Shown here piece by piece: positions 51,074 through 58,987 of a stretch of DNA of 64,000 nucleotides. Below the pieces are notes generated by a model, which was given only the letters and a program-made list of their open reading frames with translations, was not told the origin of the DNA and did not search any database. A program made the position numbers and the translations under genes. Source of the DNA: Escherichia phage vB_EcoM_G37-3. The first letter of the stretch is position 1. The number at the start of each line of letters is the position of its first letter. The stretch lies in sequence record MK327941.1; one strand, given 5' to 3'.

Positions 51074-53938
51074 ATGGCAGATTTAAACAGAATCCAATTT
51101 AAACGCACTAGCACTAAAGGTCGTAAACCTGATGCTAGTACGATGTATCCGGGGGAATTGGCAATCAACCTTGCGGATCAATACATGTTTACTAAAAATG
51201 ATTCGGGGACTCTCATCAATTTAAGTTGTCCTCCGGTGTATAACCGTGACGTTATAATGGCGGGTAAGGTTAAAGGGAATGATTATATTTTAAGCAAAAC
51301 CGCTAATTATTTTGAAGACCAAACCGCGCGAGATCTTAATTATTTTGGTGCGTTTCGACCGAATAATGCTGATGGTTGGTCTAACTTGATTCTGAACATT
51401 CCTCATCCCAGCGGTAAAGCACACGGTCGCGGTTTTGAGTTCCAATATGGGTCCAGCTCACCTCAAGTTAAAACCTATGGCTTTGATAAAGATGGTAATA
51501 AGCGATTCAGCTTTCGCATGTATCACGAAGGTGATAAGCCTAGTCCGTCAGAATTAAATGTGTACAGCAAACAAGAAGTAGATCGGATGTTCCAAAAGAC
51601 ACTTGATTTTGGAACTGAGTCTGGTTGGTTTAAAATTGCTACTGTATATCTTCCGCAACACTTCGGTCGTAGTGCTAAAATTAGATTGGTTGGTGGTAAT
51701 GGCTATAATGTAGGAAAGACAGATCGATGTAATATTATTGAATTAGTGTTGCGGAATGGCAACAATGCCCCTAAAGGAATTAATATTGTTGCTTATCATC
51801 ACATTTCTGGGGGTGAAAACCAATTTTGTGCTATTAATACAAGCGACGATAATTATGATATATATGCTTATTATTTCGGACATACATCATTTGTTCTTGC
51901 TGAATATCAAGCGTCTACCGGTGTTAATTTAACTGTACTTGATCGACCTGAATATGTCGGCGAAAAACCTGTAGCTGATCATATCTATGATGCATATACA
52001 ATATACTCCTTTAACAGTTTCAGTAACCGTGGAACGTTAAATTTTGCTGGAAACCCTCAAGGCCAATATGACATTGAGCATATGAACGAACAACCGACAA
52101 ATGCTAAAAAGATGTTGCGTCGGTTTAGAAGCTCTGCTCTTTCCACTATCTGGCATGAAACCGTTGATGACCAGAATTATCGTCTTGCCACTGGCTTTAC
52201 AGATTCAGGTCAACAATTATTGCTGACAACAACCGGGTTACATGTCAAGAGATTAACATTGGATGGCGGTGCTGCGGGTGGAAATGCTGGTATTGATATT
52301 CGTCGAGGACCAAACGAAGCAAGCCATTTTAATTTTATGGATTATCGCACTGGTCAAGATGTTCGTAATGGCTGGTTTGGTTTTGGTGATTTGACGACCA
52401 AAGATTTTATTTGGTGGAACGATAACGGTCAAAACTCGATAAACTTGGTCGAAAACGGTGAATTACAGATTTCTGGCGGTAAAGGCCAGAAAATTGTAAT
52501 GAATAGCGAAGTTGCATTATCTGAAAATGCTCGTTTGGCTGTTAGAGGTGGTAATTATGGCGTGATATTCCGTAATGATGGAACGAGCTTTCATCTGCTT
52601 ACTACCGATTTAAAAGATTCTTTTGGTAGTTGGAATAATCGCAGACCGTTCAGTTATGATTTCGCCGAAGGTGGATTAGATCTAGGTGGCACAACGACCG
52701 CTCGTTGTTTACATCTGGGAATTGATGGTAGTACCCGCATCGAGGATAACTTAGTTTTCCGGGCTGGATCTCGTCAATCAATGGACTATATTGAAATGAT
52801 CCATTGGGGTAACAGTAATATCGCTCGTGACAACGTTTTGAGTATGAAAGACTCGAAAGGATTCCTTGCTGAATTTGAACGCGTGGGTGGGACTAACGGC
52901 GTTAAAACCAGATTATTTGGCGAAACCTTCACTGACGGTACATTATACCTAAATCAGATGAATAATAGCTCTGAACGATTCTCTATCAACAATTGGGGAA
53001 ATTCAGAAGTTGGACGCGCGGCAGTAATGGAGATCGGTGATTCCAAAGGTTATCACTTCTATACTGAACGTAGAACAGATAACACCGTTTTATTTGATGT
53101 AGCTGGTGCTTTGACCGTGCATGGACCTAACGGAATAACCATCAAAAACTCAACTGGTGCACGCCATATCTGGTTTAGAGATGACAGCGAATCGGAAAAG
53201 GCTGTTATCTGGGCTACAGATGAGGGTATTTTACATATTCGCAATAACCACGGTGGACAATTTAGTCATCACTTCCAGGGTGCAATGATTAAAGCGGGAG
53301 AGCGTGTTCCATATAATAGTGAATACGCTCTTATCCGTGGTGATATTTCCGGTGGTGCATGGGTAGACTGGCGAGCGCGTCCGGCTGGATTGTTGGTAGA
53401 CTGTCAGGACTCACGAAATCAAGCATATAACATTTGGAAAGCTACTCATTGGGGCGAACAGCACCTTGCGGCGATGGGTGTTCATGCTGGCGGTGGTAAT
53501 CCTCATGTTGTATTGCATGTGGGTGGGAATGATTATGCATTTGCATCTAACGGTGATTTTACTGCTGGTGCTGCTGTATATTGTAACGACGTTTATATTC
53601 GTTCTGACCGTCGTCTGAAAATTAATGTTGAAGACTACGAAGAGAATGCGGTAGATAAGGTAAATAAACTCAAAGTTAAAACCTATGATAAAGTTAAATC
53701 TCTTTCTGACCGCGAAGTTATCGGCCATGAGATTGGTATTATCGCACAGGATTTGCAAGAAGTATTACCGGAAGCTGTTAGCACTTCTAGTGTCGGATCT
53801 CAGGATAACCCAGAAGAAATTTTAACAATTTCAAACTCCGCAGTGAACGCGCTGTTAATTAAAGCGATCCAAGAAATGAGCGAAGAAAATAAAATCCTTC
53901 GTGAACGTCTTGCTGCAATTGAGGCTAAATTAGGGTAA
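51074..53938 (+). CDS. 37: long tail fibre distal subunit gp37 with C-terminal intramolecular chaperone (peptidase S74-like) domain
   Basis: 954 aa; C-terminal about 110 aa IRSDRRLKINVEDYE...IGIIAQDLQEVLPEAV...NALLIKAIQE typical of auto-cleaving fibre chaperone domains. Confidence 0.85.
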   Translation: MADLNRIQFKRTSTKGRKPDASTMYPGELAINLADQYMFTKNDSGTLINLSCPPVYNRDVIMAGKVKGNDYILSKTANYFEDQTARDLNYFGAFRPNNADGWSNLILNIPHPSGKAHGRGFEFQYGSSSPQVKTYGFDKDGNKRFSFRMYHEGDKPSPSELNVYSKQEVDRMFQKTLDFGTESGWFKIATVYLPQHFGRSAKIRLVGGNGYNVGKTDRCNIIELVLRNGNNAPKGINIVAYHHISGGENQFCAINTSDDNYDIYAYYFGHTSFVLAEYQASTGVNLTVLDRPEYVGEKPVADHIYDAYTIYSFNSFSNRGTLNFAGNPQGQYDIEHMNEQPTNAKKMLRRFRSSALSTIWHETVDDQNYRLATGFTDSGQQLLLTTTGLHVKRLTLDGGAAGGNAGIDIRRGPNEASHFNFMDYRTGQDVRNGWFGFGDLTTKDFIWWNDNGQNSINLVENGELQISGGKGQKIVMNSEVALSENARLAVRGGNYGVIFRNDGTSFHLLTTDLKDSFGSWNNRRPFSYDFAEGGLDLGGTTTARCLHLGIDGSTRIEDNLVFRAGSRQSMDYIEMIHWGNSNIARDNVLSMKDSKGFLAEFERVGGTNGVKTRLFGETFTDGTLYLNQMNNSSERFSINNWGNSEVGRAAVMEIGDSKGYHFYTERRTDNTVLFDVAGALTVHGPNGITIKNSTGARHIWFRDDSESEKAVIWATDEGILHIRNNHGGQFSHHFQGAMIKAGERVPYNSEYALIRGDISGGAWVDWRARPAGLLVDCQDSRNQAYNIWKATHWGEQHLAAMGVHAGGGNPHVVLHVGGNDYAFASNGDFTAGAAVYCNDVYIRSDRRLKINVEDYEENAVDKVNKLKVKTYDKVKSLSDREVIGHEIGIIAQDLQEVLPEAVSTSSVGSQDNPEEILTISNSAVNALLIKAIQEMSEENKILRERLAAIEAKLG

Positions 53939-53977
53939 TTGGAAAGCGGGGAGAAAATCCCCGCTAAGGATTCTTAT

Positions 53978-54274
53978 ATGGGATATTGGGTCAGTAGTGA
54001 AATTAATACTAAAATCGATGCTTTAAAATGGCATGTATTTGATATTCCTAACGGCTATGGTACTGCTCGCGCTGGCGTTGCTGTCATGCGTCATAATGCT
54101 GGTGGTGGATGGTCTGATGCACATATTAACGTAGATGGTTTGACCGTTGCTCGTCGTCGTGGTGGGTCCAATTGGGGATCTACTATAAATTCGTTTGTTC
54201 CTGCTGGCTGTACCGTCTCCTTTGGTTTAGGGGGTGAAGGTGGTGTTGAATATTTTAAATTCATGGAGTTTTAA
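53978..54274 (+). CDS. small Gly-rich protein, paralog 1 of 3 (98 aa)
   Basis: AAGGA-N7-ATG; MGYW...FDIPNGYG...GGGW; hairpin 53946..53964 just upstream. Confidence 0.6.
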   Translation: MGYWVSSEINTKIDALKWHVFDIPNGYGTARAGVAVMRHNAGGGWSDAHINVDGLTVARRRGGSNWGSTINSFVPAGCTVSFGLGGEGGVEYFKFMEF

Positions 54275-54276
54275 TT

Positions 54277-54582
54277 ATGGCTGGATGGATAAATCAAAGA
54301 ATGTCAAACGCTATTAGTATTTGGGCTAATGGTGGATATTTTGATATCCCTAACGGTTGGGTCACTGATTCATGCGGAATTGTTTTTGCTCATATGGAAG
54401 CCATTAACGGTGCTGGTGATCTTGGTTCTGAATTGGCTGTAAATGGATTGATTGAATCAGGTCATCACGCTGGTAATGCCGGAAGTTGGGGCGCTAGTTC
54501 TTTAGTTGGCGCTGGTGCTACCGTTAGCTTTACATTGGGTAAAGGTAGTTTGCATTATTTCAAATTCAGGAGAATGCACTAA
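54277..54582 (+). CDS. small Gly-rich protein, paralog 2 of 3 (101 aa)
   Basis: MAGW...FDIPNGW...; ends YFKFRRMH. Confidence 0.6.
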   Translation: MAGWINQRMSNAISIWANGGYFDIPNGWVTDSCGIVFAHMEAINGAGDLGSELAVNGLIESGHHAGNAGSWGASSLVGAGATVSFTLGKGSLHYFKFRRMH

Positions 54583-54884
54583 TGGCATTTTGGGTAGATG
54601 GCGCTTTGGGGAATAGGGCGGGTAAAGCAAATCAAGGATGGTTTGATATTCCTAACGGTTGGACAGCCGACGCTTTCGGGACTATTTCATTTTCCGCTCA
54701 TTCTTCCGGTGGTGGCGGCGGTGACTCTGAATTGTTTATTCATGGTTTTTGTGTTTCTGGAAGCCATAAGGGTCATGATTGGGGACAGATCCATTCTTGT
54801 ATTGCACCGCAAGGGGCGGTAATTACCGTTAGCACAAATAGGGGGGTCGCTCATCTTCGTTATAGACGTTTGAGCAACCGCTAA
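54582..54884 (+). CDS. small Gly-rich protein, paralog 3 of 3 (100 aa)
   Basis: AGGAG RBS; MAFW...FDIPNGW...GGGGGD. Confidence 0.6.
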   Translation: MAFWVDGALGNRAGKANQGWFDIPNGWTADAFGTISFSAHSSGGGGGDSELFIHGFCVSGSHKGHDWGQIHSCIAPQGAVITVSTNRGVAHLRYRRLSNR

Positions 54885-55212: not shown

Positions 55213-55869
55213 ATGCAAGTTTCTGAAAAAGGGAAAGACTTTGCTATCTCAAATGTCCTGCGCGCTATTTTCACAACTAAAAGCACGGAGTTGCTCGTAC
55301 TTCGTGTTTTTGCTGCCGTCGTGTTGTCTATATTAGCATTTGTCGTTTATAGTAAAAACGAGTTATTTGCCTTGTATAAAGAGACTCGTTATGAGACTTA
55401 TGCTCACGTTCTCCAGGTAGAGAAAGACCGCAATTTTGATAATGCAGCACAGGAGCAGTTACAGATAGTTCATGTGTCGGCTAATGCCGATTTTTCTGCT
55501 GTTTTTAGTTTTCGTCCGAAAAACCTAAACTATTTTGTTGATTTGGTGGCATATGAAGGAAAGTTACCTCATACAATCGACGAAAAGAATTTAGGCGGAT
55601 TCCCTATCAATAAAACGAGTGAAGAATATCGTAGGCATCTTTTAGGTAAATCCTATTTTACCGATAAAGATTTCCAGTATATTCCATCAAGAGAAAAGAA
55701 ATTAGAGAGTATCGATATAGGGTTTATGTATTCTTGCCCTATATTCAATCTCGATAATGTCTATTCTGGTAGTATCGCCATTGCATGGAAGAATAAACCG
55801 GATATTGACATTGAGAATTTAGATACTCTTTGCAATCAATCTGCCAGAATCCTCGGAAGGATTAGATAA
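55213..55869 (+). CDS. t: holin t
   Basis: 218 aa; single N-terminal TM; LQIVHVSANADFSAVFSFRPKNLNYFVDLVAYEGKLP matches T4 holin. Confidence 0.85.
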   Translation: MQVSEKGKDFAISNVLRAIFTTKSTELLVLRVFAAVVLSILAFVVYSKNELFALYKETRYETYAHVLQVEKDRNFDNAAQEQLQIVHVSANADFSAVFSFRPKNLNYFVDLVAYEGKLPHTIDEKNLGGFPINKTSEEYRRHLLGKSYFTDKDFQYIPSREKKLESIDIGFMYSCPIFNLDNVYSGSIAIAWKNKPDIDIENLDTLCNQSARILGRIR

Positions 55870-55875
55870 CTTAAA

Positions 55876-55908
55876 GGGGAAGCCTTTCGGCCTCCCCTTC
55901 TTTTTTAT
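55876..55908. terminator. bidirectional rho-independent terminator after holin
   Basis: AGGGGAAGCC-TTTC-GGCCTCCCCT then TTCTTTTTTATT. Confidence 0.6.
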
Positions 55909-56153
55909 TGGCGCATAGAAGCCCCTGAATCACATTTTGACGCTGTATGATGAAAACATGTAGCGTACCAGTCATCGGCTTGTTTGTCTTCGTCAGAAAA
56001 CGCATAATTTCGTTGTATGCCGTTTTCTACTTTGACCAGTGCAATAGCTGTTTCTGGAAGATCAATCAATCGGACAAAATCACCATCTTCCCACTCTACA
56101 CGAGCAATATCATAGCCCATCTCAAAGTATACAATCGCTTGTTCTAATTTCAT
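55905..56153 (-). CDS. DUF2829-like (Tad2-like) small protein (82 aa)
   Basis: N-terminal FEMGYDIARVEW and C-terminal AFSDEDKQADDW resemble the DUF2829 pattern. Confidence 0.45.
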   Translation of the reverse strand: MKLEQAIVYFEMGYDIARVEWEDGDFVRLIDLPETAIALVKVENGIQRNYAFSDEDKQADDWYATCFHHTASKCDSGASMRQ

Positions 56154-56479
56154 TCTGGAAACTTCCCGTAAACATTCTCTGCTAGCTTACGTGCATCTTT
56201 TACAATATCTTTCATGTAATGACTATAATTTTTAGCTAGATCAATGATACAATCAACAAAGAAGTAATAGCGTCGCAGTGCTACCAGCTCAACATCTTCA
56301 AGATGACCATTTTCTCCAATCGCTGAAATGTGTTTAAATTCCTTTCGGATCGCGTCCATCGCTACATTAACTTCTTTTATAATATCTTTCGTATTATATG
56401 CACCTCGACTAATCAAAATTTTGGTTAGGTCTTCTGCTTTTTCGTGAAAGTTGTCAATTTCAAACTCGATCATAATCAC
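56150..56479 (-). CDS. hypothetical protein (109 aa); paralog of 56588..56920
   Basis: shared helical pattern, both end ...EN(V/I)(Y/F)GKF. Confidence 0.55.
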   Translation of the reverse strand: MIMIEFEIDNFHEKAEDLTKILISRGAYNTKDIIKEVNVAMDAIRKEFKHISAIGENGHLEDVELVALRRYYFFVDCIIDLAKNYSHYMKDIVKDARKLAENVYGKFPE

Positions 56480-56587: not shown

Positions 56588-56920
56588 TCAAAATTTACCG
56601 AAAATATTCTCTGTCATAATTCTTGCTTCGTCGATTATTTTCGTCATGTTCATGGTGTAGTTATGATCATTTAGTGCCTTAATAACAACGAGCAAGGAAT
56701 CTAAAAACACTCGATACCGGGTATATTCTACGCTATTTGTGAATACCGATGTTTTCTCTACTTTATCGATCAGATAGCCTAAAGCCGATAGCGCCTCGTT
56801 TACTTCCCTTGTTACTTTATCGGCGCTAAACAACACCGGATAAAGACGCGGTGTGATTAACCGCGCTGCCTCTTTCAATTCGGTCGCTTTCCATGATTCA
56901 TATTTGTCATAGTTAAACAT
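56588..56920 (-). CDS. hypothetical protein (110 aa); paralog of 56150..56479
   Basis: see paralog. Confidence 0.55.
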   Translation of the reverse strand: MFNYDKYESWKATELKEAARLITPRLYPVLFSADKVTREVNEALSALGYLIDKVEKTSVFTNSVEYTRYRVFLDSLLVVIKALNDHNYTMNMTKIIDEARIMTENIFGKF

Positions 56921-57272: not shown

Positions 57273-57641
57273 TCACTTAACAAAGATTTTCTTTAATGCT
57301 TTCAGGATCGTTGCTTCCGGCGCTTCTTCCGGTGGAGGAAGCAATTCTACCACTTCCTCTTCCAACTCGATATAGTCTACCAGATATTCTACATAGAATG
57401 CAAGTGCTTCCATGAAATTAGATGCTACATCCGATTCACCACACGCGCCTACATGCATTGTATAAACATCACTGCGATCAAGTTTGTGAATACTCCCCAG
57501 ATAGTTCCGGTTATACCAGACTTCCCACACTTTCAGCTTTCCGGTTTTGGTTGATGTTTTATAATCGGTTTCGTAATGATGCAATTGACGTTGCAGATCA
57601 TTGATAATAACACATTTTTCGTAATTGTTTTGAATTTCCAT
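57273..57641 (-). CDS. hypothetical protein (122 aa)
   Basis: ORF in small-gene block. Confidence 0.55.
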   Translation of the reverse strand: MEIQNNYEKCVIINDLQRQLHHYETDYKTSTKTGKLKVWEVWYNRNYLGSIHKLDRSDVYTMHVGACGESDVASNFMEALAFYVEYLVDYIELEEEVVELLPPPEEAPEATILKALKKIFVK

Positions 57642-57866: not shown

Positions 57867-58154
57867 TTATTTTCGGTTGTGGTCACGATATGTTTTAAAA
57901 TATCCCTCGTACCACGGTAAAACATCTGGATTTTTACCACTATACAGACCTTTAACCATCATGTCAATAAGACCGTCCGGTGTTTGATAATTACCAGCTT
58001 TTATAAGCTCTCTGATTAAAATTTCCCTGTATATGTCTTTCGGATCTTCGTAATCAACTTGTATCGTGGTTGTAGTCTCATTCAATTTGGTTTCTGGAGT
58101 ATCTTGCATCGCCTTCCACCAATCTTTTGTAATCTTCATGTTATTGAATTGCAT
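57867..58154 (-). CDS. hypothetical protein (95 aa)
   Basis: ORF. Confidence 0.55.
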   Translation of the reverse strand: MQFNNMKITKDWWKAMQDTPETKLNETTTTIQVDYEDPKDIYREILIRELIKAGNYQTPDGLIDMMVKGLYSGKNPDVLPWYEGYFKTYRDHNRK

Positions 58155-58165
58155 AATTTAACCTC

Positions 58166-58924
58166 TTACTTGCAAACGTATTGATCTACATCAATTGCGC
58201 CACCGAATGTAGGATGACGTTTTTCGAATCGAATAGTTCCGTCGTTTGGTTCGAAAACGGAGTATTCATATAGATCTTTCTTGCCAACATTCTTATAAAA
58301 CCCGCCTTTAGTCATAACGGTTTCTTGTACGTTTGCTTTGTGTACGTTGTATTCATCAATGTATACAAAATCAACCATCTTCCCATTTTTAATTGTTACT
58401 TTAAGATCTCCTGGTTGGTTTCCATATTTTGCATACAGTGGCGCTTCTTTAATTTTTGTGGAAATTCCATCTTTCATACTCCACTCATAACGAACGGTGC
58501 ATTGATAGGTAAAAGTTTCGACCTTCGGTTCTTCCACCACTTTTTCTTCCTGTTTCGGTTGTTCTTCTTCAACCTTCGCAGAAGTCTCTGAATCGCTTTC
58601 TGACGCGGTTTCTTCTTTAGGTAATACATTCATCAAGTTTTGGATTTGAGCGTTGTATACAGCCTCCAGTGGCTGAATCTGCCCGATATTGATCATTGTA
58701 TCACGAACAGTTTTATTCCAGTTTCGTTGCTCTTGTTTCAGAGACGGATCAATCTTAACAGCCTTAACATACACCTCATGAAGTTTAGAGTCCAGTGCGG
58801 AGATAGACTCATTAGCACAAATAAACTTCTCTGATTTGGTAGTAGCTTTAGCGCAATCGAAGGACGCAGCGTTAGCACCGAAAGCAGTAGCAGAAAGAAC
58901 GATAGCAGCGATAATGTTTTTCAT
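58166..58924 (-). CDS. secreted protein with LprI / DUF1311-like N-terminal domain (252 aa)
   Basis: signal peptide MKNIIAAIVLSATAFGANA; CAKATTKSEKFIC...LDSKL...Y pattern. Confidence 0.6.
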   Translation of the reverse strand: MKNIIAAIVLSATAFGANAASFDCAKATTKSEKFICANESISALDSKLHEVYVKAVKIDPSLKQEQRNWNKTVRDTMINIGQIQPLEAVYNAQIQNLMNVLPKEETASESDSETSAKVEEEQPKQEEKVVEEPKVETFTYQCTVRYEWSMKDGISTKIKEAPLYAKYGNQPGDLKVTIKNGKMVDFVYIDEYNVHKANVQETVMTKGGFYKNVGKKDLYEYSVFEPNDGTIRFEKRHPTFGGAIDVDQYVCK

Positions 58925-58958: not shown

Positions 58959-58987
58959 ATGTTACTACTCCCTTAATCCGGTGTCAA
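58959..58987 (-). promoter_or_regulatory. early promoter cassette (PeSL-like)
   Basis: TTGACA, 17-nt spacer, TAACAT within GGGAGTAGTAACATACTCAC. Confidence 0.5.

Follow-up and report, generated by a model that had tools for sequence, protein, structure and literature searches.

The best described members of the Tad2 family are immune-signal sponges of differing specificity. SPO1 Tad2 (gp34.65; PDB 8SME, 8SMF and 8SMG), a small acidic phage protein, is a type I Thoeris gcADPR sponge; HgmTad2, also known as AcrIIA7 (PDB 8KBI), and SptTad2 (8WJD) are dual sponges for gcADPR and cyclic dinucleotides; ModTad2/MoTad2 (PDB 8V3E, 9EIB) is a sponge for His-ADPR (type II Thoeris) and for cUMP/cCMP (Pycsar). 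Specificities within the family are proven to be broad and shifting (PMC12393519), and of 84 sponge-family homologues assayed against seven systems by Hadary et al., 19 were inactive in every case; the study included 18 Tad2 homologues. Published diphosphate contacts are N26 in SPO1 Tad2 (Yirmiya et al.) and N22-G23 in HgmTad2 (PMC10680739), and T78 of SPO1 Tad2 is a reported adenine contact. Mutation of HgmTad2 S90/T92/D93, the equivalent of the SPO1 S76/T78/D79 motif, abolishes binding (Li et al., PMC10680739). The characteristic assembly is a homotetramer, in which two ligand pockets lie between protomers that are not dimer partners. An insertion between strands beta2 and beta3 bears a helix, alpha2, which contributes to the V-shaped dimer interface of SPO1 Tad2 and ModTad2, and long insertions at this place form a second pocket for cyclic dinucleotides or cUMP (PMC10680739, PMC12393519).

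A 64,000-nucleotide stretch of Escherichia phage vB_EcoM_G37-3 (MK327941.1; hereafter the window) was analysed for a candidate member of this family. DNA of the region is 97.6–98.8% identical to that of RB49-like phages (genus Krischvirus, family Straboviridae). The 82-aa open reading frame (ORF) that a first-pass annotation had placed at 55905-56153, giving no strand, is present at exactly this position on the minus strand; it has an ATG start, and no in-frame start was found further upstream. On the evidence of the ORF itself, Pfam, PHROG and identity with RB49, it was annotated as the coding sequence (82 aa plus stop) of a minimal Tad2-like (PF11195/DUF2829) protein, with the sequence MKLEQAIVYFEMGYDIARVEWEDGDFVRLIDLPETAIALVKVENGIQRNYAFSDEDKQADDWYATCFHHTASKCDSGASMRQ. 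The motifs on which the DUF2829 assignment had been based were all found, as F10-E11-M12-G13, A17-R18-V19-E20-W21 and A51-F-S-D-E-D-K-Q-A-D-D-W62. Direct reading of the sequence revealed a Shine-Dalgarno-like site, GGGAAG (56162-56167, minus strand), 8 nt before the ATG. The start codon overlaps the stop codon of an upstream 109-aa ORF (56150-56479) in an ATGA (56150-56153, minus strand), an arrangement that suggests translational coupling of the two genes.

The RB49 counterpart, RB49p255 (ORF253c), is 100% identical to the G37-3 protein, and the protein was present at 95% identity or more in all 58 Krischvirus records; in the Krischvirus records listed, the GenBank label is always 'hypothetical protein'. 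UniRef automatically names the exact G37-3 sequence (n = 10, Krischvirus) 'Thoeris anti-defense 2-like domain-containing protein', and a literature search found no paper linking RB49 or Krischvirus with Tad2 or Thoeris. Two diverged orthologues came from metagenomic T4-like contigs, P0004 with 59% identity and P0005 with 49%. Both occupy the same slot, as the last gene of the block and convergent with holin t, and on the longer of the two contigs the gene-52 topoisomerase subunit is encoded upstream of the block. Synonymous sites in the orthologues were saturated (pS 0.82–0.92), and non-synonymous divergence (pN) was 0.28–0.31 over residues 1–67 and 0.50–0.76 over the C-terminal tail. Because pS is saturated and pN is low in the core only, this pattern of substitution indicates that residues 1–67 are constrained coding sequence under purifying selection and that the tail drifts almost freely. 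We conclude that the ORF is a real gene and not a chance ORF. An 83-aa protein (P0002; ENA contig, 3785 bp) was considered as a C-terminal variant and rejected. It consists of the N-terminal 58 residues of the Tad2-like protein joined to a translation of the opposite strand (the plus-strand ORF 55947-56147 of the window), and it therefore appears to be a fold-back assembly artefact rather than a natural variant.

The proposed family assignment was borne out by the profile check. PF11195 (Tad2-like, formerly DUF2829) matched with 27.9 bits, above the gathering score of 25 (E 3.4e-6), residues 1–63 aligning with profile positions 1–71 of 73; judged by this sequence score, the match is a marginal pass, some 3 bits over the threshold. 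The P0004 and P0005 orthologues scored 26.1 and 25.5 bits, both above the cut-off; for comparison, a short form from Klebsiella (see below) scored 21.0, under the cut-off, and SPO1 Tad2 scored 85.8. The protein also matched PHROG 1048 (function unknown) with E 5e-19. In searches of the PDB at E values up to 10, the solved Tad2 structures were reached neither by phmmer with the protein nor by hmmsearch with a four-sequence profile; the solved Tad2 proteins detect one another at 1e-13 to 1e-17. Since the direct sequence search of the PDB was empty, the link to the solved proteins rests on Pfam, on hhalign and on comparison of folds. In hhalign, a nine-sequence profile of the short branch aligned with 82 canonical Tad2 sequences from IMG/VR with a probability of 88.5% and E 2.7e-6.

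AlphaFold2 returned the same topology from alignments of four and ten sequences, with mean pLDDT of 76.5 and 80.4. In the model the core has pLDDT of ∼80–90, and residues 69/70–82, at less than 50, are predicted to be disordered. The predicted folded core, residues 1–67 (55953-56153, minus strand), comprises alpha1 (3–12), beta1 (14–18), beta2 (26–32), beta3 (36–43), beta4 (46–49), alpha3 (54–58) and beta5 (62–67). The predicted monomer, with its N-terminal helix, five-strand antiparallel sheet and short alpha3 before the last strand, has the Tad2 fold. This agreed with the fold expected at first pass, as the model matched only Tad2 structures and Tad2-like/DUF2829 phage proteins of BFVD. The top eight Foldseek matches in the PDB were all SPO1 or Myroides Tad2 chains (probability 1.0, TM 0.54–0.62), and the next match had an E value of 0.9. 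About 30 matches in BFVD had a probability of 1.0; most of those with a name were Tad2-like/DUF2829, and other proteins of ∼70 aa were included. No other family with the same fold was found in the PDB or BFVD searches. Profile and predicted fold together make membership of the Tad2/DUF2829 fold family well supported, though as a far outlier: the DUF2829/Tad2 identification is correct, and the protein is a new and divergent member of an established family.

Its distance from the best studied member is considerable. SPO1 Tad2 has the same alpha1, five-strand antiparallel sheet and alpha3, and its R-x-x-W and D-W motifs are kept in the G37-3 protein, which is likewise small and acidic; but identity is 14–18%, phmmer does not detect the relationship, and the charge is -8.3 as compared with -3.4 for SPO1 Tad2. 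The 24-residue beta2–beta3 insertion with alpha2 of SPO1 Tad2 is absent from the G37-3 protein, which has instead an extra disordered tail of 15 residues. This C-terminal tail (residues 68–82 plus stop; 55905-55952, minus strand), delimited by pLDDT, pN and alignments, is poorly conserved and is absent both from the 68–72-aa Klebsiella forms and from canonical Tad2. A C-x-H-H-x4-C metal site at the C-terminus was rejected, as it is not kept in orthologues (P0001 has Y for C74). AcrIIA7 is itself a DUF2829 protein, and family membership might thus be read as pointing to an anti-CRISPR of the AcrIIA7 type, which we regard as exceedingly improbable. Type II-A CRISPR is not, to our knowledge, an E. 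coli system. The Cas9 inhibition ascribed to AcrIIA7/HgmTad2 and homologues was, moreover, not reproducible, and the activity was reassigned to that of a Tad2 sponge (Li et al., PMC10680739).

The pocket was compared residue by residue. SPO1 Tad2 was taken from the SPO1 genome, its residues matching the numbering of Yirmiya et al., and was mapped onto the G37-3 protein by global profile alignment (hhalign). The alignment paired W25 with W21, N26 with E22, G27 with D23, I63 with V40, T65 with V42, D67 with N44, H71 with R48, W73 with Y50, S76 with S53, T78 with E55, D79 with D56, V80 with K57 and W85 with W62; K28 was deleted. Two segments carry the contacts. W21-E22-D23, in the beta1–beta2 loop (56085-56093, minus strand), aligns with the W25-N26-G27 gcADPR/diphosphate contact, and Y50-A-F-S53-D-E55-D56-K57, in the beta4–alpha3 loop and alpha3 (55983-56006, minus strand), aligns with W73-V-P-S76-Q-T78-D79-V80. 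All the structural elements that line the gcADPR pocket in the SPO1 paper are present in the predicted model, and the pocket residues W25, S76 and D79 are kept, as W21, S53 and D56. The diphosphate-contact dipeptide N26-G27 is acidic here (E22-D23), and the W-N-G-K motif is lost; the adenine-contact position T78 is also acidic (E55), and one clamp tryptophan, W73, is a tyrosine (Y50). In the canonical sequences W25, N26, W73, D79 and W85 are invariant (82/82) and S76 and T/S78 stand at ∼98%, figures that are biased upward because the patterns GWNGK[NG]M and D[VI]LAEDW were used in part to pick the 82 sequences. MoTad2 retains the W-N-G-K and W-x-P-S-x-S-D motifs together with the insertion, whereas the G37-3 protein does not.

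These substitutions bear on whether the protein could inhibit type I Thoeris in the canonical way, by binding 3'cADPR (1''-3' gcADPR) in the manner of SPO1 Tad2. Such an inhibitor would have the same fold and pocket elements, the W, S and D contacts are kept, and the replacement of W73 by Y is conservative. The changes from N26-G27 to E22-D23 and from T78 to E55, however, affect residues to which contacts with the phosphates and the adenine have been ascribed, and the branch departs from a motif conserved in ∼99% of the Tad2 proteins analysed by Li et al. (PMC10680739). Because the phosphate contacts are acidified, we consider canonical 3'cADPR binding unlikely. The core has a net charge of about -9.5 and a pI of 4.1; so acidic a core would disfavour an anionic ligand, unless the charge were offset by K57 or a metal ion.

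The second departure from the canonical architecture lies between beta2 and beta3. In the model the connection is ∼3 residues long (33–35), and the insertion that bears alpha2 is absent. Consistent with this, 28 residues separate the first clamp tryptophan from the second aromatic residue, as compared with 47 in SPO1 Tad2 and 34–73 (mode 49) in canonical sequences. In HgmTad2 and SptTad2 an insertion of 35–41 residues makes the cGG/cGAMP pocket; the G37-3 protein has essentially none. Sequestration of CBASS or Pycsar signals (cGAMP, cGG, cUMP/cCMP) in a second pocket, like that of HgmTad2, SptTad2 and MoTad2, could be entertained, as some Tad2 proteins act in this way and CBASS is common in E. 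coli. The second pocket is, however, built almost wholly from the beta2–beta5 insertion (35–41 residues in the cyclic-dinucleotide binders, 24 in SPO1 Tad2). With this insertion missing, binding of CBASS or Pycsar signals by that route is very unlikely. More generally, CBASS-type cyclic-nucleotide binding is the less likely activity, because part of the canonical pocket is remodelled and the protein lacks the insertion from which the second pocket and some of the dimer interface are formed.

The same minimal architecture was found in a second group of phages. A profile search of a 5.8-billion-protein database returned only Krischvirus-type proteins and 68–72-aa proteins from Klebsiella N4-like phages and prophages (P0009–P0014; for example VLCpiP4b P4b_00024), which are 28–34% identical to the G37-3 protein. 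One of these Klebsiella forms is named 'Thoeris anti-defense Tad2 family protein' in UniRef. Their W-to-Y spacing, at 29–30 residues, is similarly short, and they share with the G37-3 protein the same kinds of substitution, with W-[VD]-[DE] in place of W-N-G, Y in place of W73, and [ST]-D-x-D-[KRM]; they differ in having no C-terminal tail and, in VLCpiP4b, in lying between tail genes and not in an early anti-defence block. An exhaustive phmmer search of 1.84 billion proteins found five true relatives only. Three long proteins with matches in multiple stretches (P0003, P0007 and P0008) were set aside as repeat-protein artefacts; P0007, the one of the three that was read, is an FN3-like repeat protein. 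A scan of IMG/VR with the short-branch profile returned only Krischvirus contigs.

Canonical Tad2 domains were found in 428 of 50,697 phage records, 65 of which are Escherichia phage records; the latter include ∼70-kb N4-like phages, at least three among the matches listed. One of the 65, ECBP1, encodes a 163-aa DUF2829 protein (L089, 3752-4243), of which the Tad2 domain is the C-terminal part. A genomic slot common to the Klebsiella short form and canonical Tad2 of N4-like phages was considered and rejected, since the ECBP1 gene adjoins the virion RNA polymerase gene and the VLCpiP4b short form lies between tail genes.

In the ten-sequence alignment of the short branch, W21, Y50, D56, D61 and W62 are among the invariant residues, with S or T at position 53. 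What is left of the canonical pocket is thus precisely what is held fixed, and this argues for a pocket that has been maintained with a different chemistry. A serious rival, which we hold to be possible but clearly not the favoured reading, is that the Tad2 fold has been kept and its sponge function lost or changed; for example, the acidic surface might bind a host or phage protein, or the protein might bind no small molecule. The loss of K28 and the acidic residues at the diphosphate contacts and at E55 would fit such a change, as would the missing alpha2 dimerization helix and the strongly negative core; about a quarter of the sponge homologues tested were inactive in all seven assays, and the gene of the Klebsiella-phage homologue has tail genes on either side and is not part of an early anti-defence block. 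Set against this is the fixity, across very divergent short forms, of W21, Y50, S/T53 and D56, the residues aligned with the main hydrophobic and polar ligand contacts, and the searches of the PDB and BFVD offered no alternative family with this fold.

The best-supported reading, in which we place about even confidence, is that the protein may act as a sponge and take up a TIR-type ADP-ribose signal in its one conserved Tad2 pocket. From the sequence comparison and the model, we infer that subunits would self-associate such that the W21 loop (beta1–beta2) of one faces Y50, S53, D56 and K57 (the beta4–alpha3 loop and alpha3) of another. The two subunits would enclose between them a small nucleotide-derived alarm molecule, which would be held away from the host effector, with an anti-defence effect. 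A TIR-made ADP-ribose derivative, that is a Thoeris-type signal, is the favoured ligand class because, of the Tad2 pockets, this is the only one retained. Many active TIR-domain defence systems are present in E. coli (PMC11350192); together with the shifting specificities of Tad2, they keep a sponge role plausible.

A more specific proposal, and a rather doubtful one at present, is that the short proteins of Krischvirus and Klebsiella form a distinct functional subclass. Its members would have a ∼65-residue core without the alpha2 dimer interface and an acidified pocket (W-E/D-D, Y, S-D-E-D-K), and their signal would lie outside the characterized Tad2 specializations. The assembly would perhaps be a simple dimer with one pocket. 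Candidates for the signal are ADP-ribose derivatives that carry a cation, such as N7-cADPR or His-ADPR, and a new product of one of the many E. coli or Klebsiella TIR systems. If this subclass exists, the protein could be used as bait for its signal, as ModTad2 was for His-ADPR.

The point of interest of the G37-3 protein is its minimal, acidified architecture. Were it active as a sponge, RB49-like relatives of the T-even phages would have their first assigned immune-signal sponge, and the protein would define the minimum of a working Tad2, from which the dispensable parts of the family architecture could be read; were it inactive, it would show that function can be inferred from a 'Tad2-like' domain label only within limits. 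With its altered pocket it is an inexpensive candidate for the kind of screen that found new Tad2 specificities (Pycsar, type IV Thoeris). Krischvirus phages have a broad host range and are used in phage-therapy collections, so that knowledge of their counter-defence genes is of practical value.

The Tad2-like gene converges on the T-type holin gene t (55213-55869; Pfam Phage_holin_T, E 1e-60). The first-pass annotation had put it just past the holin hairpin and at the start of a block of small genes. The former is correct; but because the gene is convergent with holin t, with the hairpin between them, it is the last (3'-most) gene of a minus-strand small-gene block and not the first. The G+C-rich hairpin between holin t and the block, identified by folding energy (55873-55900, both strands), has a 12-bp stem as minus-strand RNA (-23.2 kcal/mol, z -5.1). 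As plus-strand RNA it is at -16.8 kcal/mol (z -1.8), with a U6 run after it; where the plus-strand RNA has an A-C mismatch, the minus-strand RNA has a G-U pair. The hairpin is likely to be a bidirectional terminator common to holin t and the minus-strand block, and it belongs to the GGGG...CCCC type known from the PeSL cassettes of RB49 and phi1 (PMC2839356).

Upstream of the Tad2-like gene, small minus-strand ORFs follow one another without a break, closely spaced or overlapping. The nearest intergenic sigma70-like promoter candidate, from a consensus scan only, is TTGACA-17-TAACAT (58959-58987, minus strand); if functional, it would start a packed small-gene run of ∼3.1 kb that ends with the Tad2-like gene. 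A second candidate from the scan, TTGACA-17-TATAGT (57939-57967, minus strand; 11/12), lies inside a 95-aa ORF. Promoter-like sites with a perfect TTGACA were found on the minus strand at 58987, 59210, 59491, 59765 and 63382. The total number of sites in the scan was not above chance, and the promoter evidence is therefore one of consensus matching only. In RB49 and phi1, strong sigma70-like early promoter and stem-loop cassettes have been shown experimentally in hyperplastic regions, which are rich in non-essential adaptive ORFs (Arbiol et al., PMC2839356). The block that the Tad2-like gene closes lies in a region of this kind; early expression of the gene is therefore plausible by analogy, and a sponge encoded here would probably be expressed early. 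Pfam and PHROG scans gave no functional or anti-defence annotation for the neighbouring small ORFs, the PHROG matches all being of 'unknown function' except for the holin. No second DUF2829-like ORF was found when all six-frame ORFs of the window were searched by HMM with the short and canonical profiles.

Several other features of the region were recorded. Directly upstream of the Tad2-like gene are two paralogous ORFs of 109/110 aa (56150-56479 and 56588-56920, minus strand), both of PHROG 9457 (function unknown). The RB49 record likens a 122-aa ORF (57273-57641, minus strand) to a 12.8-kDa protein from the asiA-motA region of T4, and the gene in the same relative position in L007 matches Pfam Phage_T4_Y16F; this likeness and this match tie the small-gene block to the T4 early region from t to gene 52. 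Also within the block, a 252-aa protein (58166-58924, minus strand) begins with a signal-peptide-like sequence and matches the Pfam domain LprI (lysozyme inhibitor) with 26 bits against a cut-off of 22. On the other side of holin t, three tandem ORFs of ∼100 aa (53939-54274, 54277-54582 and 54582-54884, plus strand) share an 'FDIPNGW' motif, have no Pfam or PHROG match, and directly follow the gene for the long-tail-fibre distal subunit (51074-53938). In RB49 the tail-fibre gene is followed straight away by the next conserved ORF, without these ORFs, and they therefore look like a variable receptor-recognition accessory module.
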